From positions 1 to 38,774 of the forward strand of contig DF237696.1 of NCBI GenBank assembly GCA_000708835.1: a stretch of 38,774 nt of DNA, in the 5' to 3' direction. The translations under genes were made by a program, and so were the position numbers. The notes under the pieces were generated by a model. It was not told where the DNA came from. It ran no database searches and was given only the letters and a program-made list of their open reading frames with translations. The first letter of the stretch is position 1. Every line of letters begins with the position of its first letter. Below are positions 3,401 through 34,815 of the stretch, piece after piece. The DNA is from Klebsormidium nitens. Lineage: Eukaryota; Plantae; Klebsormidiophyceae.

Positions 3401-4403
3401 AGGTCCTGAAATCTCATCGACTTTCCTTGAGGTATTAAGGAACATTCTTCCAGTTATCAGTAAGCCTTATATTCTTGTCAATCAATGAATGGGTCCTTCA
3501 AACGTCTTTATACTAGAGTCCGTATGCTTTAAGTGAATTTGACGTTGTTCTCTGCACTGATCAGGTTTGCGTGAAGGGCTCGAGTCTGGGGCTTTCGAGC
3601 CGGCAAACGGCAGTCAGAACGTGACGAGCTTTCTGGAAGGTGAAATGGAAACGGAAGAAGCGACCGGGGAGGGCTGCCGGCAGCCTCAGTCGGAGGAGGA
3701 AGGGGCGAAAGAAAGTGAAAACCGTTCGGAGGGCGATAAAACAGGAGAAGTGGAGAGTGAGGCAGGCGGGGAGAGTGGGACAACTTCGCAACCTTGTTCG
3801 GAAGGAAACAACGGAAAAGACGACGGGGAGGAAGCGGGTACTTTTAGAAGCTGTCCGACAGCAAGTCAAGGCGATGTCGCCGTCGGGGTTGTCGGGGTTA
3901 GCCCAAGTGGCTCGAGGAGTGGCGGTTTAGGGGCAGCCGATGAGGGGATAATGGAAGATGCTTCGGTGGTCCCCGAGTGGGCTTTGAGTTATATGATTGG
4001 GAGACACTACACCTCGGTTGCAGAAATTTGGCAAGAATGGGCATACGGACAAAAAGGGTACCCCTTGTCTTTGAGACGTATGGAGGAGCTGTGGGGTACT
4101 CGCTGGAGAAGAGGGCGGGAAAACGAAAGCAAACGTCTCTCAAAATTCCGGAAGATTACAAGTCTGGTCGAAATTGTGTTGAGGCAGGGCAATGTAGGCG
4201 AGGCGGCAGCAGTACAGGCCGTTGAGAATAGCATGATTGCATGTGGCATAGATCCGGCGCAGCCATGGGAATATTGTGAGTTGCTTCGAGAGTCAAAAGC
4301 TGGCAATTCTGATGAACAAGACGAACCGGCCAGGCAAAAAGGAAAGCGGAAAAGAACAGGTCAGTCGGAGTCAAATAGGAAACGCAAGAAGTCCATCGCC
4401 TAA
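433..4403 (+). pseudogene. Crypton-type (CryptonF-like) tyrosine recombinase gene, NDC10_II-like YR plus C-terminal GCR1_C; spliced, one frameshift, 5' end degraded or outside the window
   Basis: Hand-built exons 433-600, 930-1160, 1328-1576, 2111-2516, 2884-3096, 3565-4403 are joined by GT-AG introns with matching phases (2,0,0,1,1). The spliced protein reads TYNTQLKHFKQAYREQEIVSSKLTHAPRGASVRHAENNG/GKEVESARLGRWIYDHFRTSYLHQLPVGIMLVQAGF..YFLPR..LANQIFPW..DIAAQKLLELLIALRAVLLQD. This matches the Crypton/Ndc10-II pattern, with catalytic-type HxxR, W and Y residues. A 1-nt loss near 1128-1130 (FPW-PTRN instead of FPW-ADEELRKVKQ) shifts the frame. A possible decayed GKTNQ-like motif lies at 156-172 (weak). 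Confidence 0.85.
3987..4230 (+). other. GCR1_C (Gcr1/Hot1-type DNA-binding) domain in the last exon of the Crypton gene
   Basis: YMIGRHYTSVAEIWQEWAYGQKGYPLSLRRMEELWGTRWRRGRENESKRLSKFRKITSLVE matches the GCR1_C pattern Y.M.R...TV.DLW.EW..G....PS..ELE..YG..WR. It is followed by a basic NLS-like tail (KGKRKR, RKRKK). Confidence 0.85.
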
Positions 4404-8268: not shown

Positions 8269-8434
8269 GTGACGTCTTTTATAATTTTCCGGACCCTATG
8301 GTTAGTGACGTCAGAGACCTCTTTTACAATCCCTGTTCCGACTTGGTCCGTCTTGGTGTCAAGGAACCCTCTTGGTGGTCTTTATGTTCCCGTGAAGAGC
8401 CGGGACAGCATAGTGAAGCAAAATGGTCAATCTA

Positions 8435-9253
8435 CGCTATTTTATTAGTGTCTCCGGTCGACTTGTCAGGGTAAATTGTTTCGCATGGCGTCAATCTGTG
8501 CACCCATTGGCTCGTGGTCTGACGTGTGTCAGAGCGAACTGTTTGCTCGGATCCGCTAACTGCGGTCCCTTTGAATGGGCCCTACCACGGTACCGGGCTA
8601 CTTTTTGGTCTACGGAGCATACGCCGGGGCCCGGTACCCGGGACGACTTCTGAGGTACGCGTACGGGTTCGAGAAACCCAGGTAGGTATATCACAGCGGT
8701 GTCATTGAACGGGTCAAGTTCCGTAAAATTTGTCATAAGTAGTTTCAGTCATATTTACAATCACAAATCTGGTCAGGTAATAAGGATTAAACAGACCTGA
8801 TCGACCAGGATTTCCGGTCACTTGTCACAATTTACAGTCATACAATCACAGTCACAGTCAGAATCACATTCACAATTCACACTATTGTAAGTTCGAAATA
8901 TAACAATTCGCTTTAATAACATACCGGTTGGTTCACATCAAGTCAAACCGTCGCGGTCACTGTCACAGTCACGGTTAATACAGTCGTGTTACGGTCACAG
9001 TCACAGTCACAGTATTAAGATTGACACAGTCACAATCACAATCACAGTCACGTAGGCATCGGGTCACGGTCAGCTGTAAACCTTGCAGGGTTGATTCCAC
9101 CCATACAACTACCCGGCCGTCAATAGTAGTGCCCGGGGGACCGTTGTGCAAGGTGTGGTACCGACCGGCCAGTTAGTGGATGTGGTCATTTATGTTCGCG
9201 GCACGGGAGGGTATTAACACAAGAAGCATGCCAAAGACACTAATAAAATAGCG
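8435..9253. mobile_element. Non-autonomous TIR element (MITE-like), TA-flanked, Tc1/mariner-type junctions
   Basis: Perfect 21-bp inverted repeat TACGCTATTTTATTAGTGTCT (8433-8453) / AGACACTAATAAAATAGCGTA (9235-9255). The outer TA can be read as a target-site duplication, leaving a 19-bp TIR. No transposase ORF inside. Confidence 0.6.
8824..9051. repeat. Degenerate hexamer repeat (CACAGT/CACAAT)n inside the TIR element
   Basis: Repeated cacagt/cacaat units, e.g. atcacagtcacagtca, ggtcacagtcacagtcacagt, gacacagtcacaatcacaatcacagtcac. Confidence 0.8.
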
Positions 9254-9269
9254 TACTTCGTCCTACTTG

Positions 9270-11330
9270 CATCAGTGAACGAGAAATGAGCATAAACAGT
9301 GTCAACAAGAATGAGCCTCCTGAACACCATCTGAGCGTAAGAATCAGATCGCGTGGCATGGCGAATCTCAGACAAGAAGTCGGGATCAGGCTGCACACTT
9401 GACACTGCAGCGAGTACGGGTTGGTCACCAGTAGGTACCGGTTTGTGGTGTGGTCTGCGCGAAAGGGCGTCTGGTAGTGTGTTGAGCCGGCCCTCCCGGT
9501 AGGTGAGCTTTAGGTCGAACTGGTTCAATTGCTCCTCCGACCGGTGATGGCGCGACTGAGTCATGAACTCGAGACTGAGAGGAAAGAGAAGTGGTCGGTG
9601 GTCACTACGGACAGTGACCGGTCGGCCCAACAGGTAGTGTCGCCACTTAGTGCGTGGCATGCACGAGTGCAAGCTGCTCCCAGTCGCGAGCAGAGTATTT
9701 CCGCTCAGCGCGGTTGAGTCGCTTGGACTCGAACGCGACCGGTAGAAGATCGCGATCTGTAGCGGTTCCCTGGAGCAGCACTGCACCAACTGCAAAGTCT
9801 GAGGCGTCAAGATCAAGTGTATAGGGGAGGTTAGGGTCGTACGGGCGGAGGATGGGTGCGTGGGTTAGGGCAATGTTGAGGGATTGGAACGCATGTTCCT
9901 GTGCGTCCGTCCACTCGAATTTTGCCGTTTTGGTTAGCAAGTCGTTGAGGGGTGCGGCAATCTGCAAAAACCTGCTGCGGACAAATCGGCGATAAAATCC
10001 TGCAAGGCCGAGGAACGAGCGGATATCGCCAGGGTCGTTTGGCCGTGGCCACTGGCTTATGGCGTCCACCTTGCATGCCTCCATGGACACCCCATGCTCG
10101 TTGATGACGTGACTGAGGAAGGTCACCTCGGTACGCCACAATTCACACTTGGACTCCTTGGCGTACAACTTGTGGTTGCGCAGGCGTGTGAATACCTCCC
10201 GAAGGAGGCGCTCGTGCTCATCTGCAGTCTTGCAGTAAATGAGAATGTTATCCAAGAAAATGACCACACCCCGGTCGAGCAGATCACGGAAGATGCCGTG
10301 CATGAGATCCGTGAACGCGGCTGGGGCATTCGTCCGACCAAATAGCAAGACCAACCACTCAAAGTGATTGTACCGCGTGCAAAACGCAGTTTTAGCGACG
10401 TCAGCAGGATCGATGGGAAGCTGCCAATAACCGGAGCGCAAATCAATCTTATAAAAGATTCGCGCCCCGTGCAGCTGATCGATAAGATCGTCTGCCCGGG
10501 GTAAGGGGTGAGCATTCTTCACCGTCTGCTTGTTCAGACCCCGGTAGTCAATGCAAAACCGGAGGCCCCCGTCCTTTTTCGGGGCGAAGAGAACATGTGC
10601 CCCCCACGGTGAATTGCTGGGCCGGATGAAGCCCTCAGCAATCTTGAAGGTCGTCCAGAGTACGGCGGAGTTCTTTGAGCTCAGAGGGGGACAGGCGGTA
10701 GATGTGGCGGTTGACCGGGGTAGCCCCCGGTTCGGTCTCGATGTGGAAGGGCATCCCCCGGTCAGGTGGTAGGTGGGCGGGTAAATCAGGACTGAGGAAA
10801 AACATCGGGGATGTCAGCGCCTTCAACCGAGTACATCTGTCAGATTCAGGTGCCAGATTGGGTACAATATCAGGCGAAATGCTGGGTGTAACTTGAAAGA
10901 CCGGTTGCTTCTTCTTGAGCAGCTTGTTAACCTGCACAGAGCTCATCCGATCAACCGGTCATCATACTGCGCACGCAAGGCCCGCTTGGAGGGCCTTCCG
11001 GCCTCTAGCGTTACAAATCGAGCGTCGTGGATGAAAGAGATGGTACGTTTCTTCCAGTCCACGCGCTTATAATTACCCAACCCCAACCAAGGTAACCCAA
11101 GAATGATATCGTAGGTTATGTCTGTTACAGTGAATGGTAGGTCCTCAGTGTAAGTGGAACCGATGGAGAAGGGCATCGGGTTCACTCTACGAGAGACCGA
11201 TTGCTGTGGATCGTGGGCCAGACCACCTGACACACTCACACCCTCAACAACAGAAGTTTCTATTCCTAACCGAGCAGTAAACGATGCAGACATGCAGATG
11301 TCGGTCGACCCACAATCGAGAAGTATACCC
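9270..11330 (-). pseudogene. pol: Gypsy pol remnant: aspartic protease, reverse transcriptase, RNase H
   Basis: PR motifs LLDCGST and YDIILGLPWL. RT motifs FAPKKDGGLRFCIDYRGLN, KIDLRSGYWQ, FGRTNAPAAF and FLDN (catalytic YxDD broken). RH motifs LDASDFAVGAVL, VAFESKRL, SDHRPL and DALSRRP. Stops at 10943-10945 and 10635-10637, and a frameshift near 9650. Confidence 0.95.
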
Positions 11331-14005: not shown

Positions 14006-15524
14006 ATGATGGCTCATTGTCCAGAGATAACCAGCATGAAGCAGTTTAATGCAAAAAGTGCGGTGTTTCTGGTCAGAGGCGGCATACTTCTTCTTTTAAG
14101 CGTCATAACGTTATCTGTGCTCATTGTTCTCCTTCCTCAAGGTACCCTCAATCAAGCATGGTTTCGGCAGGTATGTGTTCATTGACCTATGCAATGGTGG
14201 CTAAGCAATGGTTGCTCTTTTTGGAACAATCAATGCAACATGTTCAGAATTCCATATCAACTCTCTGAGGAAACAATCTTTGAATTCCACCGCCAGTCTT
14301 CAATGTTCTACAACATTCTGCTGCGAGCAAGAGGTATAGTGTGGTTTGCAAAGGTAGTGATATTTGATTTAGATGTAGACTAGGACGGGGGGCAGAAAGC
14401 AGAGTTATCATGGAGCATGCTTTTTTGTTGATCTCTAGGCTTGGAGACAAAATTGTTAATTCTATGCCACATGTACCAGGGTTTGTAGGTCAAAAGCTGC
14501 TTGTGTGTAATATTTGTGGAACACATCAGGTAACACTTTTGTTTGAGAACCCTGACCATCATTTGCATATGGACATGTTATCTTGAAAGCTTAACACGGT
14601 CTATCTTTTCGTTGTGTCCACTTTCTCGTCAGAGACCAACTGCCAGCCAATGTTTGATATATGTGTGCATGTTGATTCTTTCTGCAGGCATGCACCAGTA
14701 GGACAGAGGGCTCCACTTCTGGGGCCTATGGGGGAGATCCATACTGGGACAATGCTGCAGCAAGCCTTTCACAGTGGCAGAATACTTTGTTTCTCAGGCT
14801 ATCGGCCCTTTATCGATTGAGCACCGTATGCAGCCAGTTAAGCTGTCCTAATGTGCCAGACGAGCCACCTGCCCATGACCGATTTGATCTGTTTGATCCT
14901 GTGGTTGGCTGCCCAACCTCGCTGTCTCTTGCCCGTTGGGGAGGAAAGGGCGATGGGGGCAAGTGGCTGTGTGGGGTGGACACTTTGAAAGAGGGGTGCA
15001 TCATACTCAGCCTTGGAAGCAAGGGCCAGTATGGCTTTGAGAAATCGATGCTGACAAACACACCTTGCGAGGTGCACACTTTTGATTGCACTTTCGATGG
15101 ATCCAGCCAAGGACCTCGCCATCACTACCACAAGCTATGCCTTGGCAGCGCTGAGAAGGCGGCTGAAGACCCATTGTTTGTCAGCCTTAGTGAAGCGGTA
15201 AAGATGCTTGACGTCACAGTAGTGAGCATCCTGAAAATGGATATTGAAGGTTTTGAGTACGACGTTATGGCAGCGTGGCAGAAGACAGACCCACTGCCAT
15301 CCCAAATCTCGTTCGAGTTGCATTGGAGTGGTGTGTATTTCAAGACAAATCCAGGTCCAGATTCCAAGACTGTGATGTGGAAGGGCAGGGTTGTAAGTGT
15401 AGCAGAGTTGGCAGTTTTCATGACACATCTGGCCAATCTAGGCTATGCCGTGGTCAGTAAGGAGAACAATATCAGGTGTGGCCATTGCAGCGAGCTTACC
15501 ATTATCAGAGTCCGTCAAGGTTGA
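14006..15524 (+). CDS. Membrane-anchored SAM-dependent methyltransferase, METTL24-like / Methyltransf_22 family; two exons (14006-14170, 14688-15524), ~333 aa
   Basis: Exon 1 encodes a hydrophobic anchor (GGILLLLSVITLSVLIVLLP) and ends CAG|GTATGT. The acceptor TTTCTGCAG at 14687 resumes in phase 0 and stays open to TGA at 15524. Motifs: GDGGKWLCG, CIILSLGSKGQYGFE, CEVHTFDCT, ILKMDIEGFEYDV, QISFELH, ENNIRCGHCSELT. The start codon could be 14006, 14009 or 14034. Confidence 0.85.
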
Positions 15525-23614: not shown

Positions 23615-24719
23615 AAAGAACCGTTGACCCGAGACGCTCAGGAGACAGGTCCTCGAGTCCCCGCATGTCACTATTGCTCGAGCTTTCCAGGTCCAAGGAA
23701 TTGCGCGCGGGTCTACAACAACTGTCGGACATACAAAAGTTGCACTGGCTGACGTCACAGCGTTGGACCCAGTTTTCCATGGACTAGTAAAGACTCAGTC
23801 TGATCCATTGTTCTGACATTGTTCGTAACGTCGATCTTTTGCTCCCACATTCAGCTACCGGTCTGCTTGTAACAGATTTTGGGCTTTGATTTCATCACGA
23901 TGACGTCAAACTTTAGATAGTATCCTGCCACTTGTGGATAAGTCGATCTGATTTTGGTCCACGTTCTTTCCTCGAAGCTCATGCAAGAAACCGTCTTTGC
24001 AGGTCGGCTCCTTCAAAATTGTTGGGCTTCAACTCCTGTCTGATGAAGGACGTCCCTGCGTTGAACCTTTCTTGCTATTCTTTGCCTCAAAGCTCTTTCT
24101 TTGCAGGTTTGCCCGTTTCAACTAGCTTCATAAAGTTCGGTTAAGAGAAGGCTTATACGCAAGGGCCACGCCTTTTGAAACTATCTGCCCGGAGGCAGCT
24201 ACCTTTCGAACACCACAAAATCGAAGGCTCCTTAAAGAGGGCGTCCCGTGACCCGTAACGCCTGACGTCAGCCGCATACGGTGAAATTCAATCGCACGGA
24301 AAGTCTGCCCGCGTGACGTGAAATTGAAAACCGGTGTGAGTTCGACCTGCACGGCGTGCGGAAAAAGGAGCAAAGTTGCTCCGACTGAGTTTCGATCGCT
24401 CGTTTTCACGGTGAAATTCGAGCGCCCTTGCCAACTGTGCTAGGAGTCGATGTGCTTCCGAGCTGGTCTGGAGAAACTCGAGCCGGGACGGTATCTATAG
24501 ACTGACGCCCTCTTTAAGAAATTAACCATGTGGCAGTTAACACCTCCACACAACCGGATCAAATGAGCGGAAACCCTTGAGATCTTGTAGAAGAATGATG
24601 ATGATGAAGTGAAAGATAAAGGGGGAAAGGGGGAGGGGCTGATGCATGGGCCTTTATACTATATTTCAACCCGTTCATCATCATCGATTTGGCCCTACGG
24701 CGGATTTTGTAAGGAAAGC

Positions 24720-25410
24720 GATGATGATGAAGGCTATGAAACGGGGGTATAGGGGATCATGGGACCCCAAGACAGCCTATGATGATGATGAAGGCTTTGA
24801 AACGGGGGTATAGGGGGTCCTGGTAGTCCGGGGACCCCCAAGACAGAATGATGATGATGACCGCAGTGAAACGGTGGTGTATGGGGTCCCGGGACCTCCA
24901 AGACAGAATGATGATGATGATCGCAGTGAAACGTGTGTACAGGGGGTCCCGGGAACCCCAAGACATAATGATGATGATGAATGCAGTGAAACGGGTGTAT
25001 AGGGGGTCCCGGGACCCCCAAGTTGAATTGATGAAGATGATTGCAGTGAAACGGGGGTATAGAGGGTCTTGGCTTAAAGGGAAGTGATGATTCGGATGAA
25101 GGGTTTGAAATGGGGGTATAGGGGGTTTGGGACAGAAGAAAAATGTTGATGATGAATGCTTTGAAATGGGGGTATAAGGGGACCCGGGATCCAAGAGGAG
25201 TTGATGATGATGAATGCTTTGAAATGGGTGTATAGAGGGTCCCGGGACCCAAGGGGAATTGATGATGATGAAGGCTTTGAAATAGGGGTATAGGTATAGG
25301 GGGTCCCGGGACCCAAGGGGGATTGATGATGATGAAGGCCTTGAAGTAGGGGTATAGGGGGACCCGGGACCCAAGGGGGATTGATGATGATGAAGGCTTT
25401 GAAAGGGAGG
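24720..25410. repeat. Minisatellite, ~58-60-bp unit, 11 full copies plus a partial, with palindromic GGGTCCCGGGACCC core
   Basis: Units of the form TGATGATGATGAAGGCTTTGAAACGGGGGTATAGGGGGTCCCGGGACCCCAAG start near 24720, 24780, 24849, 24909, 24969, 25029, 25085, 25147, 25202, 25260, 25325 and 25382. A perfect 18-bp palindrome GGGGGTCCCGGGACCCCC is at 25002-25019. Confidence 0.95.
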
Positions 25411-25989
25411 TCACGGTATATGGGGTAGTATATGGTAGTATGAGGAAGATGTATATGATTGCACCTCTATATATATGCAATATTATGATGAAAGTGATAA
25501 ACGTGTATATATTCACGGCCCATTAGTACTCTCTCACGCAGGGGGAAGCGGGAACGAGCACGGGAGGTGTGTCGCCGCCGCCGCTGCCAGAACCGGCGCG
25601 GCCCAAGCGCAGGCTCACAAACGCGATGATGATGCACGAGAGCCTGGAGGCAGCGAAGCACCGGCGGCGCGGCCACCTAACGGCGGATCTACTTGGGGAC
25701 CAGTTGGCGTACATTGAGGCGCACTGGTTAGGCAGCACCCAGTACGAATGGGGGGTGCCAGAAGCCCCGGGCCCCTACCCGCCTGAATTCGAGCAGAACC
25801 CGTTCTTCAAACACCCCGAACCCCACTCCAGCCTCTCCATGTACCCACCCCGCGGGTATGAACCGCCGCCGGACTGGGAGGAGTACTACCCGCCAGGCCG
25901 CAGGCCCAAGGGGCCCCAGGTGGAACCCCCGCCACCGCCTCCATCGGCGCAAATGGCGATAGCGTGCAAGGGGGCCGCGTCCTACCTCG

Positions 25990-26520
25990 AATGGTAGAGC
26001 CATCGGCGCACGCACTGCTGGCGCAAAGAATGAGAGACTTACCAGCGTTCCGCGGGGACCGGCGGCTGGAGCGAGTGAAGGCGCCGGTGATCCGGACGGA
26101 GGAGCGCAGGGTGTGGGTGAACGGCAAGCCGCCGACGGGGACAGCCATCTTCAACACCGACGCGATGCCGTTGCTGATCGGGAAGAAGGGGATGAAGCAG
26201 CTCGGTTGGGGCAAAGACAACATCATCCCCGACGCCATGACGCTGGGGCTAGCGGACGGGAAGTCCTTCAAGCCCTTCCCCCTCACCCAAGAGCCGGTAG
26301 AGTTTGTTTTCAAAAAGGGGACGGCAGCGGAGACCTCGATTCGGGCGCGCGCAGTCGTGACGCAGGCGCCATACGACTTTCTCGTGGGCAACGTTGTGAT
26401 GTGGTCGATGGGAATGGTAATCAACGCGTGGCGGGAGCAGGTGCGGTACCGAGTGGGAAGGCGCCAGGGCAGAGAGCACGCGGGCGAGGCACAGGGCTAC
26501 TTCCCGGTGGACTACGAGCG
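25990..26520 (+). pseudogene. Aspartic protease domain of Gypsy relic 2
   Basis: VWVNGKPPTGTAIFNTDAMPLLIG has NTD at 26153-26161, two G-to-A changes from the DTG active site. Also MTLGLADG and YDFLVGN. Confidence 0.75.
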
Positions 26521-27472
26521 CGACGTGGGCTTGGGCATGCTCCCACCGGCTTTCCTGGCTGATGACAAGTTGGAACCTCCCGCCGGGGGGGGGAGACGCA
26601 AACAGTGGGGAGCTAGGGGCGGAGTTGTGGCCGGTCACAGACGAGGAGGGGCCGCCGGCGCTAGCGGACGCAAGCAACAGCGAGAGCGAGGGCGACGAGG
26701 AAGAGGAGATGCCGATGCTGCTCGGCCTGGTTGAAATTTTTGATGATGAGAGCGCAACGCAAGGGCCCAAACCGCGAGGAGCCGGAGAAGAGGCGCATGC
26801 GGGGGAAGACAGAGCGTTGGGACCGGCGGGAGGGACAACTGCGAACGGGGACGAAGCCCTAGGAGCAGGAGGAGCGGTCGCCGGCGCAGCTTTTGCGTAC
26901 TTAGACGAGGTCTACCACGTGCGCGGGGCTGAAACAAGGAGGGTGGGCCCGGTGCGGAACCCGAGAGCGGCCCTGGTCCCGCACGTTGTGGAAGTTGACG
27001 AGGCGGGCCGGCGCCCGCTTCCCCCAGGCTGGAGGTACATGGAAGGGGGGACCCGGGTGGTTCACGCGGGCGCCCTCAGTTTTGACGGACGGCACTGGCG
27101 CGGCGAAGAAGAGTGGGAGATCCAGGACAAGGCCGACGCGCAATGGTGTTGGAGTTGCAGCGGGAGTGGCCACAGTGGGGCGACGCGCTGCGCTTGATGG
27201 GGCAGTTGCAGAGACATCGACCCCCACCGCCGCCGGACCAGGACGAAACTCTGCCGGCAGTACAGTTCGGACGGCTCGGGGGAGAAGGCCCTGGGTCGGA
27301 TGGGGAGTACGAACCACCGCTGGGGGAGCCTTGAGGAGACTTACCGGGGACCTACATGGTGGGGTTGCCGGAGGCGAGAGAGCGCCGGCGCTCCCTGGAA
27401 GAACAGCTAAGGAAGATGGAACGGGACTAGGGCCAACAGTGGGCAGGGATAGGACCGGAGCGGCTGCCGGCG

Positions 27473-28406
27473 TTGACGCCGTTTGCGAGCCAGCACATCA
27501 CGGTGCTCAGCCTCTTCGCTGGAATCGGTGCGGAGCTCGAGGGACTACTAATGGCGGGGGTAAGTATCTCCAAGTTCCTGTATGTGGAGATAGACACTGT
27601 TGCCCGCAGAGTCATGGAGCATCGCGTTAGATGCTTGCATCACCNNNNNNNNNNNNNNNNNNNNNNNNNNNNNNNNNNNNNNNNNNNNNNNNNNNNNNNN
27701 NNNNNNNNNNNNNNNNNNNNNNNNNNNNNNNNNNNNNNNNNNNNNNNNNNNNNNNNNNNNNNNNNNNNNNNNNNNNNNNNNNNNNNNNNNNNNNNNNNNN
27801 NNNNNNAGAGCCCGGAGGCGCGGTGGGCGTTTGAGCTGATGGGGCGGGTGTGCTGCAGAGGGCCTGAACGCTGGGTGCGGATAGACGCGGCGAAAGTGGG
27901 GTCGCCGGCGCACATGGTGCGAGTCTTCGGGACAAACCTGGCGCCCCCAGAAGAGCTGCAGGCACGGTACAGAGAACTTCAACGGGAGTGGTGCAACGAC
28001 AAGCGGGAGGCGCATGACGTGCTGAACACCGGGCGGATAGTTTAAGTAGCGCGGGCCAACGACGTGGAAGTCGGAGGCTACCACCCAACGAACGTCGCCC
28101 GCGAGCCCCTGCGGATCTTTCCTGGGGCCCACGCTAGTGTCCACCCCGCGGTCGTATGCCTGGCGTCTGCACTCAGAAGACGTCCCGGGGCCTGGAATGG
28201 TCTACGACGAAAACATGAGAGAATGGCAAGAGCCAAACGCCGGTGAGCGGGTGCGCATCATGGGGCTGCTGAGGGGCTCCACCGAGGCATTGGGGGTCAG
28301 CGAAACGGACCGCTCGCGGCTAATTGGGGCGGCGATCAACGTGCGCGCGTACGTATTGCTCTGCAAGCAGATCATGCGGTGGCGTGAGGCCGCCAATCAC
28401 AACTAG
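27473..28406 (+). pseudogene. DNMT3-like C5 cytosine DNA methyltransferase domain embedded in Gypsy pol
   Basis: Motif I ITVLSLFAGIG (FAGIG 27515-27529) and motif II YVEID (27581-27595). Motif VIII-like IDAAKVGSPAHMVRVFGTNL (27881-27940; compare DNMT3 IDAKEVSAAHRARYFWGNL). Motif IX/X-like EPNAGERVRIMGL..VSETDRSRLIGAAINV (28230-28345). Motifs IV (PC) and VI (ENV) would fall in the gap 27645-27806. There is an in-frame stop at 28043-28045 and a frameshift near 28125-28135. Confidence 0.88.
27645..27806. other. Assembly gap (N run) inside the DNMT domain
   Basis: Run of n characters. Confidence 1.
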
Positions 28407-28789
28407 GGGCACGCGGGGGTCGCAGCGCCCCCGCAACAAGGGTGTTCCGAGTCACCCGAAACAAAACCCAGCAAGTGAACCTGCTGGCGGGCAGCCGGAG
28501 CGTCAACCCGCAGGTGGGGGGGGGGCGAGGATCCCAGGGGCGTGAGAAACCCAGAGAGAGCGGGGGGCCGGGGGGCCAGGGCGGGGATCGGAGAGTTTTT
28601 CGCTCCAAAAGGTTCCGGCGCAGAAGAGGAGGCGGTTGAGATCGAAGGGTTGCGCTCGCTCGCGCACGGCAGACAAGAAGTAGGGCCTGAGTGGCCGGAA
28701 GCGGTGCCGGAGGGGTTGGTCCGAACCCCAAGGAGAAAGGAGCGGAGCAGTTCGGGAAGGGCGCGGAGGAGCCATTCGAGTGGGGAGCC

Positions 28790-30240
28790 GAGCAGATCTG
28801 GCCGGGGTTGACCGAGGCGCAGAGAGAACGGGTTGTGGAGCTGCTCGAGACGTTTCGGGAGATCTTTGGCTGGTCGATCTACGACCTCAACGATACGGCG
28901 ATAGAGGGGGTGGAGTTCGAAGTGGAGTTCACGGCCGACAAGCCCATCTTCGCGCCCCGCCAGCGGTTCTCCCAGTACGAACACGAGCTGCTCAAGGCCT
29001 ACTGCGAGGAGCGGGAAGCAGCGAAGCTGATAACGAGGCTGAAGCTGCCGCCATGGGTGAAGGAGCCAACTGCGCGCCGACGGTGATGCCACGGAAGAAG
29101 GACGCTGAGGGGAACTGAACAGAGCGGTGGATTTGTGGAGTTTACCGCCGGCACAACGACAAGACGGTGCCGAACAAGTACCCCATGCCGGTGGCGGACG
29201 AGCTGTTCGATGACCTGGGGGGGAGAGATTGTTTCTCAACCCTGGACCTGCGGATGGGGTACCATCAGATCCGCATCCGGGAGGGGGACCAGTGGAAGCT
29301 GGCGTTCTGGGGGCACGACGACATCTACATGCCCCTGCGCACCCCCTTCGGCCCAAAGAACGCGCCGGCGCTTTTCCAACGGCTCATGGACCGGGTGCTG
29401 CGGCAGCTGCGGGAGGTGGCACGCGCCTTCATCGACGACACGATCGTGCACTCATGCGGGTTCGAGGCGCACCTGGACGCGTTCCGCGCGGTGTTCGAGC
29501 AGCTGCGCAAGTACAACATTAAGGTGCACCCGAAGAAGATCAGGATCCTCTTCCAAGAGATCCCCTTCCTAAGGCACCTCGTGAACCCGGTCACTGGGCC
29601 TGAAGCCGCATGAGCTGAGGGTGGCGGCGATCCAGCGGATCCCGTACCCCACCAGCGTGACGGCCCTGAAGCAGCTCGTTGCCGGTTGGCATCATCAACT
29701 ATTACCGGCGCTTCCTCAAGGGCTGCAGCGTCATCGCCCGGCCGCTGAACAACCTGCTGAAGAAGGACTTGGAGTTTCCGCGGAGCTGCCCGACGGAGTG
29801 TAAAGCGGCGATAGACCAGTTGAAAGCGGGGCTGTGCGCGGCGCCGCTACTGGTGAGGCCGGATCCGGGACGGGAGTTCGAGCTGCACACGGATTGGAGT
29901 GCGGCGGGGTGCGGGGCGATCCTCCAGCAGAGATACGAAGCGGGGAACGAGCGGGTAGTGGCGTACGCGAGCCGGAGCAATAACAGAGCGGAGTCGAACT
30001 ACAGCAGCTACGCCGGCGAATGCCTACCAGCAGTGTGGGGGTTGCGATACTTCAGGGTGTACCTCTACGGAGTGCACTTCAAGTTGTACACGGATCACCG
30101 GCCCCTGGAGTGGCTGATGACGAGCCAGAACCTCACCGGCATGCACGCGCGGTGGGCGCTGATGCTTCAAGAGTTCGACTTCGAGGTGAAGTACCGGAAG
30201 GGGCTGGTTAACATGAACGCCGACGGGCTCAGCAGAAGCC
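28790..30240 (+). pseudogene. pol: Reverse transcriptase and RNase H of Gypsy relic 2
   Basis: APTVMPRKKDAEGN*TE, KYPMPVADELFD, FSTLDLRMGYHQI, PFGPKNAPALFQR, FIDD (intact), INYYRRF, LHTDWSAAGCGAIL, VAYASRSNNRAESNYSSYAGE, YTDHRPLEW, NADGLSR. Several frameshifts. Confidence 0.95.
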
Positions 30241-30689
30241 CCTTGCCGGAAACGGAAGACCTGACGGGGGCGCGGGTGCATGACGACCCGCCGGCGGAGC
30301 CGATGTGGGCAGCGTCCGCGCTGCTCGCGTGGCAAGCCTGGGCGGTGGGGCCGGCGCTGGGCAACGACCAACAATTCCCTTGGGCGTGGGAAATCGGGGG
30401 AGAAGAGTACCCCGATGACCCCACAGGTTAGCTCGAGGACTTGGCTTTGCCAGCACCTCTCGACTACGGGCCTGCTGACGTGCAACTGCCTGTGCCGGCG
30501 GAAGCAGAACTGGGAGGAGAGAGGGCAAAGAGCCTCACGGACATATGGGAGGATGTCCACCGCCTACAGGTGATGCGCGGAGAGCAGCCCGACCCAGCCT
30601 GGAGCGAGAAGGAGCAAGAGAGAGTGCGCCGGCGCAGCCTGTCATACAGGTTTGAAGACGGGGAGCTACTGCGGCGGCTGGGGAACGGG

Positions 30690-31400
30690 GAAGAAAAGGT
30701 TGTGCCACCGCCGGCGGAGCGGGAAGGCGTGGTGCAGGCGGTACACGAGGAAACCGGCCACTGGGGAGAGAAGCGGACGGTTCATCTGTTGAAGCGGGCG
30801 GGGATGTACGAGTCGGCACGGCGGGGAGTCGCGGGGTGTCACCATTGTGACCGGACGAAGGCGGCCTTTGCGAAGGAGATGAGCGTGATGCAGAGTCTGC
30901 CAATCATGGGGTTGGGGTATCGATGGAGCCTAGACTTTGCGGGGGGCGGCCCTGATAACCACCCGGTCCAAAAAGCAGTTCGTGCTCATTGCCATTGAGC
31001 ACTTCTTGAAGTGGTGCGAGGTGTGGGTGATGCCTTCCAAGCATGCCGGCAGGGTTGCGGAGGCGTTCCTAGGGGTGCTGACGCGGTTCGGGGCATGCGC
31101 GGAAGTGTTGACGGACAACGGCAAGGAGTTCGAGGGGGAGTTTGATCAGCTCTGCCAGCAAGTGTTGCTTGACCACCGAACGACGTCGCGCTACCACCCC
31201 AAGTCGAACGGGCTGACGGAGCGGCTAGTGCGGACAATCAAGGCGGGCATCACCAAGTTCGGGTCGGAAGCGGACCGGCGGACGTGGGACGAGTGGCTGC
31301 CGTGAATGGTGATGGGCTACCGGATGAGCCGACAGGCGGCGCTCGCGGGGTATTCACCCTACTTCCTCATGTTCGGCCGGGAACCCATGCTGACGGGCGC
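30690..31400 (+). pseudogene. Integrase (HHCC + DDE core) of Gypsy relic 2
   Basis: HEETGHWG...CHHC zinc site, WSLDFAG, LTDNGKEF, YHPKSNGLTERLVRTIK, YSPYFLMFGREP. One frameshift near 30945 and a TGA at 31303-31305. Confidence 0.95.
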
Positions 31401-31638
31401 TGCGGCGCGGGGATTACTCGGTGAGCCGGTCGATTTCGATTCCGAAGATGTGTGGATGCAGGCGTGTGAGCAGCGGGCGGCGGCGTTGAAGCGGGAGATG
31501 CCTTTGGCGCTGCGTGGGCAACCCGCTGGCGGCGCAACATCGGGATCGGCGGCGCTACGAGCACGTGCGAAAGAGCGGATACCGGCCGCGGGAGCGGAAA
31601 TATGAGAGCGGGGACGTGGTGTACTTGCGCCGCTAGCC

Positions 31639-32526
31639 NNNNNNNNNNNNNNNNNNNNNNNNNNNNNNNNNNNNNNNNNNNNNNNNNNNNNNNNNNNNNN
31701 NNNNNNNNNNNNNNNNNNNNNNNNNNNNNNNNNNNNNNNNNNNNNNNNNNNNNNNNNNNNNNNNNNNNNNNNNNNNNNNNNNNNNNNNNNNNNNNNNNNN
31801 NNNNNNNNNNNNNNNNNNNNNNNNNNNNNNNNNNNNNNNNNNNNNNNNNNNNNNNNNNNNNNNNNNNNNNNNNNNNNNNNNNNNNNNNNNNNNNNNNNNN
31901 NNNNNNNNNNNNNNNNNNNNNNNNNNNNNNNNNNNNNNNNNNNNNNNNNNNNNNNNNNNNNNNNNNNNNNNNNNNNNNNNNNNNNNNNNNNNNNNNNNNN
32001 NNNNNNNNNNNNNNNNNNNNNNNNNNNNNNNNNNNNNNNNNNNNNNNNNNNNNNNNNNNNNNNNNNNNNNNNNNNNNNNNNNNNNNNNNNNNNNNNNNNN
32101 NNNNNNNNNNNNNNNNNNNNNNNNNNNNNNNNNNNNNNNNNNNNNNNNNNNNNNNNNNNNNNNNNNNNNNNNNNNNNNNNNNNNNNNNNNNNNNNNNNNN
32201 NNNNNNNNNNNNNNNNNNNNNNNNNNNNNNNNNNNNNNNNNNNNNNNNNNNNNNNNNNNNNNNNNNNNNNNNNNNNNNNNNNNNNNNNNNNNNNNNNNNN
32301 NNNNNNNNNNNNNNNNNNNNNNNNNNNNNNNNNNNNNNNNNNNNNNNNNNNNNNNNNNNNNNNNNNNNNNNNNNNNNNNNNNNNNNNNNNNNNNNNNNNN
32401 NNNNNNNNNNNNNNNNNNNNNNNNNNNNNNNNNNNNNNNNNNNNNNNNNNNNNNNNNNNNNNNNNNNNNNNNNNNNNNNNNNNNNNNNNNNNNNNNNNNN
32501 NNNNNNNNNNNNNNNNNNNNNNNNNN
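31639..32526. other. Assembly gap (N run)
   Basis: Run of n characters. Confidence 1.
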
Positions 32527-33539: not shown

Positions 33540-33805
33540 TGCATGATCCGGTGATGTGCATCCTGCATCAGAGAGCAGAAAGAGATCTACAGCACTTGCA
33601 GCGCCTCCACGCCGCCAATGTGTTTTGCGTGCAAGAAAATTGGCACGTCATCTATGGATAGGCCCGGTCGAATAGGGTCGTTTTGTTCATTTTCATCATG
33701 TGGCGAGGAGTCAAGGGTCGAGTAGGCCATGTATAGTGAGTGCCGGTATGGATAGACAGGTAGGATAGGCCACGTGGCCGTTCCCGATGCCAGCCGGCAG
33801 AAGAG

Positions 33806-34815
33806 ACGATACCGCACGGCAAGAACCTTCTCAACCTTCCACTCCAGGTTCCCATCAACAAGCAGAGGCGCCGGCAGTGGTTGCACCCGTCCATCTGGCT
33901 TGTAGGGATTCAAAAGACTAACGTGAAAGACGGGGTGAATCTTCACGCTTTGATGTCAAGTCAAGTTTATACGGCACAGCCCCAATGCGTTCCGTCACTG
34001 GAAACGGACCAATAAAACGAGGCCAAAACTTAGGCGTATTTGGAAATTTGATAGGAAGATGCTTTGTTGAAAGCAACACTGTGTCACCAACTTGCAACTC
34101 CAACTCCCGACGATTTTGATCAGCGAAGACTTTCATACATTGACGCGCACTACTCAGTACGGAATTAGCCCTGGATAGGCCGGTACTGAGGCGCCTAACG
34201 AAAGTCCCGGCAGCAGGCACTTGAGCATTGCCAAGCCCCAATTAAGGGGGTTCGGGCTTGCTAACCAAAATTCAACTCGAACGGAGAAGCTCTTACCGAC
34301 TCATGCCACGCCGAGTTATACACAAACTCGGCCGTGGAAAGCAAGCGATCCCAATCGTCATGCTCCGGAGAAACGTAATACGTAATATCGTAATACGTTT
34401 CAAGAGTTTAGTTAGAACGTTCCGTTTGCCCATCTGATTCTGGGTGAAATGCGGTTGAGCGACACAACTGCGTGCCGAGCAGACGCGTCGCCTCCTCCCA
34501 GAACTTCGATGTAAAACGAGAGTCCCTATCGGAAATGAATCCCTTAGACACTCCGTGCAAGCGATAAACCCAATCAAGCCAGAGCTCCGCAAAACCCTCA
34601 GCCGAAACGTTCGAAGTAGTAGGCGCAAAATGACGCACCTTTGTCAGCGTATCTACGAACACACAGATCGTATCATAGCCACGTGCCGTCAAGGGCAGCT
34701 GGACAATGAAGTCGAAACTCACCGAGTTTCACGGTCTTTCGGGAATCGGAAGAGGTTGCAACAGTCCAGCTTTCTGCAATCTGAGGGGTTTGTTTCGCCG
34801 ACACACTGGGCAATT
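33806..34815 (-). pseudogene. Gypsy (chromovirus) relic 3: integrase core, GPY/F module and truncated chromodomain
   Basis: CPVCRRNKP..LLQPLPIPERP*NSVSFDFIVQLP, FVDTLTK, ISDRDSRFTSKFW, AFHPESDGQTERSN, AEFVYNS, FIGPFPV, IHPVFHVSLL, then EWKVEKVLAVRYR (chromodomain start, 33806-33844). Confidence 0.93.

Follow-up and report, generated by a model that had tools for sequence, protein, structure and literature searches.

A conserved amber codon, a candidate readthrough site, closes the DNMT3-type methyltransferase frame of a Klebsormidium nitens Ty3/Gypsy subfamily

Capture of DNMT3-type DNA methyltransferase (DNMT) domains by Ty3/Gypsy retrotransposons is already known in the streptophyte alga Klebsormidium nitens. 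In the excerpts of the literature available, from which all comparisons with published systems are drawn, KnitGypsy-Dnmt3 of this species was described as a Gypsy element with intronless Dnmt3-type domains in its Pol open reading frame (ORF), under purifying selection and with a DIRS-like arrangement of terminal repeats; its DNMT was said to share an ORF with reverse transcriptase (RT) and RNase H (RH), and a Klebsormidium DNMT expressed in yeast gave no methylation, a result called inconclusive by the authors (PMC5890265). Here, we analyzed a window of 38,774 nt (contig DF237696.1 of assembly GCA_000708835.1) that contains a decayed Gypsy copy of this kind, in which a stop codon past the DNMT departs from that description. 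The locus is like KnitGypsy-Dnmt3 in its host, its Gypsy backbone, its non-permuted intronless Dnmt3-type domain, and the divergence of its copies. Unlike KnitGypsy-Dnmt3 as described, it has a conserved amber codon parting DNMT from RT, and its subfamily is marked by FEMV at motif VI and by marginal scores against the Pfam methylase profile PF00145.

Other described systems each share part of this arrangement. SymbioDIRS-Dnmt3 also carries a retrotransposon-borne Dnmt3-type enzyme, for which de novo CG methylation was shown in yeast, but with a DIRS order, DNMT fused to RT within Pol, and a dinoflagellate host (PMC5890265). The gag-UAG-pol junction of the gammaretrovirus murine leukemia virus (MuLV) is a readthrough site of Type III, a context in which UAG-G is backed by structure on its 3′ side: an in-frame UAG, then G, and a G-C-rich structure a few bases on (PMC3159437). 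The UAG, the G, and a structure of this kind, here a predicted one, recur in the K. nitens element, but MuLV has an 8-nt spacer and a pseudoknot at the gag/pro-pol junction, whereas the K. nitens element has a 6-nt spacer, predicted simple hairpins, and a stop placed after protease (PR) and DNMT. The fission-yeast Ty3/Gypsy elements Tj1, Tcry1, and Tosmo1-3 likewise have a single in-frame stop that is read through to make the enzymes, a step that is putative here; theirs is TGA-CT at the Gag/PR junction, and they have no methyltransferase (bioRxiv 2022.12.06.519325). Among the literature searched, which left out most subscription journals, no description of a stop or of readthrough past a retrotransposon DNMT was found, and the name KnitGypsy-Dnmt3 occurred only in PMC5890265. 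The available text of PMC12344493 and PMC11244446 repeats the 2018 account or does not address the stop.

A DNMT3-type domain between protease and reverse transcriptase

The copy lies on the + strand at 25527-31638 of the window (GC 0.64) with the domain order PR, spacer, DNMT3-type domain, RT, RH, and integrase (INT); the order PR-RT-RH-INT is that of Ty3/Gypsy. Its features are as follows.

25527..25997, +, left remnant of ORF1, proline-rich, ahead of PR; aligns to the K. nitens relative P0227 from 25898 on
25991..26560, +, aspartic protease region with decayed site; tblastn identity 48% to P0009 and P0049, 63% to P0054
26561..27496, +, acidic, proline/glycine-rich spacer from PR to DNMT, with frameshifts and stops; 80-86% to the K. 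nitens sister model P0002
27497..27643, +, DNMT3-type domain, N-terminal part; motif I (LSLFAGIG) at 27497-27529, motif II (YVEID) at 27581-27595
27645..27806, no strand, assembly gap of 162 N; motifs IV and VI fall here in relatives
27809..28403, +, DNMT3-type domain, C-terminal part; motif VIII (AHMVR, 27908-27922), target-recognition region, motifs IX (28245-28265) and X (28320-28343), last helix
28404..28406, +, conserved amber codon closing ORF1 (Gag-PR-DNMT), candidate readthrough site; same in sister contigs and in the relative L001
28407..28720, +, linker from stop to RT; frameshifted in this copy, open in L001
28413..28434, +, predicted hairpin 1, 8-bp stem (7 G-C) with 6-nt loop, 6 bases past the stop; stem shared with L001, loop not
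28440..28457, +, predicted hairpin 2, GGGUG/CACCC, with weaker support; shared with L001, lost in longer folds
28721..29592, +, reverse transcriptase, FIDD at 29428-29439; RVT_1 E 6.9e-23, 72-85% to L001
29862..30176, +, RNase H; RT_RNaseH E 2.4e-34
30705..31638, +, integrase (zinc-binding part, core, tail); Integrase_H2C2 E 3.2e-07, rve E 7.7e-08
31639..32526, no strand, assembly gap of 888 N after integrase, where relatives have a PHD finger

A Pfam scan matched 4 of 13 pieces of the copy, namely RT, RNase H, integrase zinc finger, and integrase core, in Gypsy order, and nothing matched its protease and DNMT pieces; the relatives' protease gave weak Asp_protease_2 matches. No Gag core or Pfam match was found in 25527..25997, and in the full-length relative P0049 some ~2140 aa precede the part that aligns to the copy. 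The 5′ end appears to have been cut against a minisatellite at window 24589-25420 (13 copies of 58-64-bp units, GATGATGATGAA core) that adjoins the truncated left end, and the 3′ end enters the 888-N gap. Long flanking repeats were not found within the window, the 5′ end being missing and the 3′ end in the gap, and no terminal repeat was seen in L001, whose sequence begins inside the DNMT. The PHD finger behind integrase scored E 4.2e-09 in L001 and 7.2e-10 in P0227; none was seen in the gapped copy. The copy is dead because its protease site (26147-26176) reads NTD for DTG (IFNTDA at 26147-26164 against ILDTGA in relatives), its DNMT has a stop and a frameshift (TAA 28043-28045 and near 28123-28128, both in the target-recognition region), and its RT and integrase carry several frameshifts and stops (frameshift near 29070 and TGA 29116-29118 in RT; frameshifts, TGA 31303-31305, and TAG 31634-31636 in integrase).

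The domain between PR and RT is, on the evidence of its relatives, real and of DNMT3 type. A search with 27431-28042 matched 14 proteins, the best being a K. nitens hypothetical protein with 100% identity. The relatives carry, in the unpermuted order I, II, IV, VI, VIII, IX, X, the motifs FAGIG, E(I/N)D, SSPCQG, FEMV, AHRVRAFW, ERERIMG, and motif X, and across the subfamily they keep the catalytic Cys, the Glu, and both motif VIII Arg. When a DNMT profile of 10 rows (7 relatives and 3 window pieces) was compared with the PDB, 39 sequences matched at E up to 1; the best 35 were DNMT3C/A/B and DRM-type (1.5e-10 to 2.2e-07), and the remaining 4 matches were insignificant. An AlphaFold model of the relative P0011 also ranked DNMT3A first, which is corroborative only at its low confidence (mean predicted local distance difference test [pLDDT] 49.5). 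Between the window and L001, DNMT identity was 0.69 at codon positions 1-2 and 0.45 at position 3. In a FastTree phylogeny of 144 DNMT cores with local support values (54 partial proteins were left out), the window fell in an 18-row FEMV clade with support 100, itself nested in a clade of 23 rows (support 98) in which a K. nitens FENV subfamily is found as well, and the FEMV clade is thus supported as a separable subfamily.

A preliminary description, made from the letters of the window, had proposed an inactivated Gypsy element with a DNMT3-type domain between PR and RT, possibly a distinct family, and had traced the concept to de Mendoza et al. 2018. These points held: every motif it named is in place, the FEMV subfamily can be told apart, and the host is the species of KnitGypsy-Dnmt3. 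Its proposed check with PF00145 gave no match to any of the three DNMT pieces of the copy, nor to a gap-spanning piece, and matched the relative P0011 at E 9e-07; because scores of this family lie close to or under the Pfam threshold, the missing match is no refutation. It had also supposed that the PC and ENV motifs were hidden in the 162-N gap. Relatives do have SPCQ there; ENV is replaced by FEMV, and because this is the subfamily's own motif VI, lack of ENV does not speak against the domain. Sister copies were read from contigs of four public runs (X1, X2, X9, and X10), none of which had a contig spanning the gap, but loose contig ends enter it from both sides and match relatives, the right end with FEMV. 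Relatives have ~98-106 codons where the copy has 162 N, so either the gap length is an underestimate or the copy has lost sequence there. The Met in motif VIII that the description had noted is present in the copy, where RxR is not intact (AHMVR) and the frame is not open, and is kept in a contig identical to the window there. It is private to this copy, as sister contigs have Arg and relatives HRxR. A scaffolding chimera, which the description had raised as a concern, was ruled out by the N-free stretch between 27807 and 31638 and by single relatives colinear across the first gap.

The stop codon past the DNMT

Comparison across copies and relatives indicates that the TAG at 28404-28406 is a conserved ORF end and not a lesion. 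It was unchanged in sister contigs from X2 (30 changed places) and X10 (31 changed places), all of them listed and none on the TAG; conservation among sisters rests on these two runs, as one change in X1 was unlisted and X9 was not usable. A more distant DNA comparison came from L001, the sole metagenome locus found (1 of 374 pattern matches), which is 48-58% identical to the window in DNMT and 72-85% in RT. L001 is intact over 4.4 kb: its DNMT closes at TAG 848-850, and the codon after this TAG opens a 1194-aa ORF with RT, RH, INT, and a PHD finger. The first Met of this ORF2 is residue 223, inside RT, whereas identity to the window is already 72% over residues 102-216, which places constrained coding sequence upstream of any AUG. 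Scans of viral contigs yielded no further DNA locus, and none of 211 pattern matches in prokaryote genome contigs was a relative. Three bacterial matches to the stop-hairpin pattern were set aside as chance in GC-rich DNA.

The preliminary description had the DNMT frame continuing past the TAG towards RT, as in one ancestral polyprotein. In the copy itself the frame closes after 23 codons at TGA 28476-28478, with RT in another frame; in L001 the frame does continue, and in the X10 sister contigs the small indels, added by hand, give a length that keeps stop and RT in phase, on the assumption that two overlapping contigs of similar depth represent one copy. Near this point, at a G run at window 28516, both X10 contigs are one base shorter, including a contig otherwise identical to the window, and a homopolymer error in the assembly may be present there.

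Protein records agree on the end point. All 21 relatives that matched a last-helix pattern ended at most 19 residues from its Trp, 20 of them after 16-19 and one after 8; they were drawn from 53 proteins, of which the other 32 were truncated or of other clades. P0049 is a 3049-aa Gag-like, PR, and DNMT protein that ends at the same place, as does the K. nitens ENV-type subfamily (P0062). The stop is found at one place in subfamilies only 45-60% identical in DNMT. Searches for longer proteins, of limited sensitivity, found no uninterrupted DNMT-RT fusion in this subfamily; they gave four fusions, all of another layout. Of the 23-row clade, 20 members terminate with the DNMT, one (P0008) is truncated, and two are fused. 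One of these, P0161, has a long branch, weak placement, a different layout, and a distant RT. Its DNMT3-type domain precedes a protease-like stretch within a Gypsy polyprotein and is possibly a separate acquisition. The other, P0160, is a K. nitens model without the last DNMT helix.

P0160 is one of three K. nitens models, with P0002 and P0227, that pass the stop by omitting the end of the DNMT. Each leaves at a different point (in the target-recognition region, just before motif X, and just after motif X), and two resume similarly in the linker. P0227 (3109 aa) runs PR-DNMT-RT-RH-INT-PHD without motif X, while P0010, 94% identical to it and from the same cluster, retains motif X and stops. 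The best reading of all three, which we infer, is that gene prediction placed introns so as to bypass the stop; the published same-ORF description may rest on such models, and they would mislead surveys of domain architecture. Published KnitGypsy-Dnmt3 copies could share the stop, overlooked, or could belong to another family, and we hold these two to be roughly even. Nuclear genes of K. nitens use the standard code, which is our ground for rejecting a host code with TAG as a sense codon.

The bases past the stop point to a candidate signal. The stop reads UAG-GGG in the window, the sisters, and L001. In both the window and L001, a spacer of 6 nt leads to a shared 8-bp stem, capped by loops of 6 nt that are unrelated, and a second shared stem (GGGUG/CACCC) follows. 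The L001 fold was stable (z -4.4, 0 of 200 shuffles as stable) and lower in energy than all 219 tiled 60-nt windows of L001. Over 3901 aligned columns, window and L001 have five stems of at least 7 bp in common, of which hairpin 1 alone has 7 G-C pairs and alone lies outside integrase. Third positions agreed in 15 of 18 codons past the stop, against 0.45-0.58 in five longer regions. The predicted signal fits the Type III readthrough context in kind, not in detail.

Expression of the element and competing accounts

Sequence comparison shows the domain order, the kinship to DNMT3, the conservation of the stop, the open ORF2 in frame with it in an intact relative, and the decay of the copy. We think it probable, as one account of the whole, that the DNMT closes the Gag-PR ORF at the conserved UAG with its predicted hairpin, that RT-RH-INT-PHD is made by programmed readthrough, and that a DNMT produced at Gag level methylates the element's own complementary DNA (cDNA). 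Readthrough of the UAG into RT-RH-INT-PHD is, taken alone, likely; activity of the DNMT on cDNA cytosines is evenly balanced. Ribosomes would make Gag-PR-DNMT and stop, with a minority reading through into RT-RH-INT-PHD. As in general retroelement biology, PR would then release the domains and the particle would pack many DNMT molecules for each RT or integrase, after which the DNMT would mark the cDNA before integration. PHD fingers occur in retrotransposons (PMC6673714), and the one carried by this family may steer integration.

Several observations weigh against this reading. The window's own fold was not significant (z -1.6, 13 of 200 shuffles), with 6 of 189 tiled windows folding equally well or better. 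Four further stems of at least 7 bp are common to the window and L001, and the 57-base stretch used for the third-position count was picked after seeing the alignment. The two full sequences show no two-sided compensatory change, just one G-U/G-C change. The spacer of 6 nt falls short of the 7-12 nt of published examples (PMC3159437), no Rfam match was found past the stop, and the predicted folds are simple hairpins with no pseudoknot, from a folding tool that predicts none. Past the stop, DNA was available from only one distant intact locus and the sister contigs; the other relatives are protein records. On the side of the enzyme, motif VI is EMV in place of ENV throughout the subfamily, which may bear on activity, and no clear mutational trace of self-methylation at CG is seen (CpG observed/expected 0.99 in the copy and 0.82 in L001). 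The published shared ORF and the negative yeast result cited above count on the same side.

Three other accounts of the junction have to be weighed. Splicing of the Ogre type, in which an intron spanning the stop would be removed in part of the transcripts to join ORF1 to RT-RH-INT, seems improbable. Ogre elements do keep GAG-PROT apart from RT-RH-INT and rely on partial splicing to connect the two (PMC6317226), and the three K. nitens models that cross the junction without the DNMT's end do so as an intron would, two of them resuming similarly in the linker. Yet these models exit the DNMT at three points, as expected of a predictor dodging a stop; the close mate of P0227 keeps motif X and ends normally; and L001 has a single stop and a fully open, in-phase linker, which would not be needed under splicing. 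Ogre has an intron of 274 bp on average, whereas one in-frame codon, with the DNMT ending ORF1, lies at the junction here. A single polyprotein, in which the TAG arose by nonsense mutation in this copy or in a sub-lineage now dead, is highly improbable and for this subfamily largely refuted by the comparisons above. It draws on the fused PR-DNMT-RT of more distant relatives (RT after DNMT in 12 of 197 proteins) and on two identical Closterium records that end at the DNMT though their close kin are fused, so that such ends can be sporadic. Against it, the stop is shared by the diverged subfamilies and by an L001 otherwise free of lesions, and P0049 ends there with no uninterrupted fusion found in the subfamily. 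Separate translation of ORF2, from a sub-genomic RNA, by reinitiation, or from a non-AUG start in the linker, with the hairpin serving initiation or packaging, is decidedly unlikely. A stable hairpin past a stop does not by itself show readthrough, but in L001, and judging by net indel length also in the X10 sister contigs, ORF2 has stayed in phase with the stop, and no Met stands ahead of the conserved RT N-terminus. RT and integrase normally enter particles fused to Gag, which also weighs against separate translation.

The fourth account accepts readthrough at the amber codon and questions the enzyme: the DNMT would not be an active cDNA methylase but would bind DNA or RNA, or act on host chromatin in trans. 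This we regard as somewhat unlikely. The Klebsormidium domain tested in yeast was without activity, but the same test failed for human DNMT3B too (PMC5890265); EMV in place of ENV and the lack of CG depletion in this copy favor the account, while retention of the catalytic Cys, the Glu, and both motif VIII Arg across the subfamily speaks against it.

Wider family, neighboring features, and significance

Against 1.84 billion representatives, a profile search gave 208 clusters with E of 1e-30 or lower and 660 with E of 1e-10 or lower, with 150 clusters among the matches listed. We classified 197 proteins with home-made domain profiles: 76 had RH before and/or INT directly after the DNMT, 12 had RT after it, 16 had PR-DNMT only, 92 had DNMT alone, and 1 had PHD-DNMT. 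P0050-P0053 and many profile matches belong to a large clade of Gypsy polyproteins, 76 of the 197 proteins, in which RNase H and integrase flank the DNMT3-type domain and a PHD finger lies at the C-terminus; the literature excerpts available do not describe this clade. True PR-DNMT-RT fusions fell in more distant clades, including Closterium records. Of 30 proteins looked up by name, every record that gave an organism gave K. nitens or Closterium. The Closterium records P0064, P0065, P0070, P0131, P0137, and P0139 carry related DNMT3-type domains preceded by PR, followed by RT, or both, and extend the element type to Zygnematophyceae. An RT tree (FastTree, 55 rows, one outgroup, no named reference clades) gave three groups as in the DNMT tree.

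The window holds further features. A second Gypsy RT/RNase H remnant at 9217-10813 (-) is only ~35% identical to this family and served as outgroup, and at 33587-34241 (-) a third Gypsy-type element has left its integrase tail, which carries a Tf2-like SH3 domain (E 2.7e-10). At 3561-4400 (+), an ORF carries a GCR1_C domain (E 4.9e-12), a domain often found in DNA transposons such as Cryptons. The ORF at 14676-15521 (+), with a Methyltransf_22/FkbM-type domain (E 2.2e-22), is probably a host gene exon unrelated to the DNMT. An imperfect 40-nt inverted repeat pair, 781 nt apart, occupies 8414-9274 and adjoins a 513-N gap.

If the DNMT ends the Gag-PR ORF, most DNMT molecules would be made without RT and at the level of coat protein. 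The published argument for cis action on cDNA rested on a DNMT-RT fusion (PMC5890265); with the DNMT in ORF1, the expected stoichiometry would change and trans action on host chromatin would become more plausible. A natural C-terminus would also be defined, which is relevant to repeating the failed activity test. The junction would be a short candidate readthrough cassette in a streptophyte alga, unusual in standing after PR and not after Gag, and hidden by public gene models. The relatives found here point to a distribution of DNMT3-bearing Gypsy elements far wider than the one algal genome in which they were reported. Tentatively, and short of an even case, we propose that a leaky amber codon past the DNMT loads the particle with active DNMT at Gag level while rationing RT and integrase, so that pre-marking of the cDNA would be tuned by recoding, and that these elements are a branch of an old, widespread, and little-described green-lineage Gypsy clade that may have moved DNMT3 among three layouts: PR-DNMT-stop-RT, PR-DNMT-RT, and RH-DNMT-INT.

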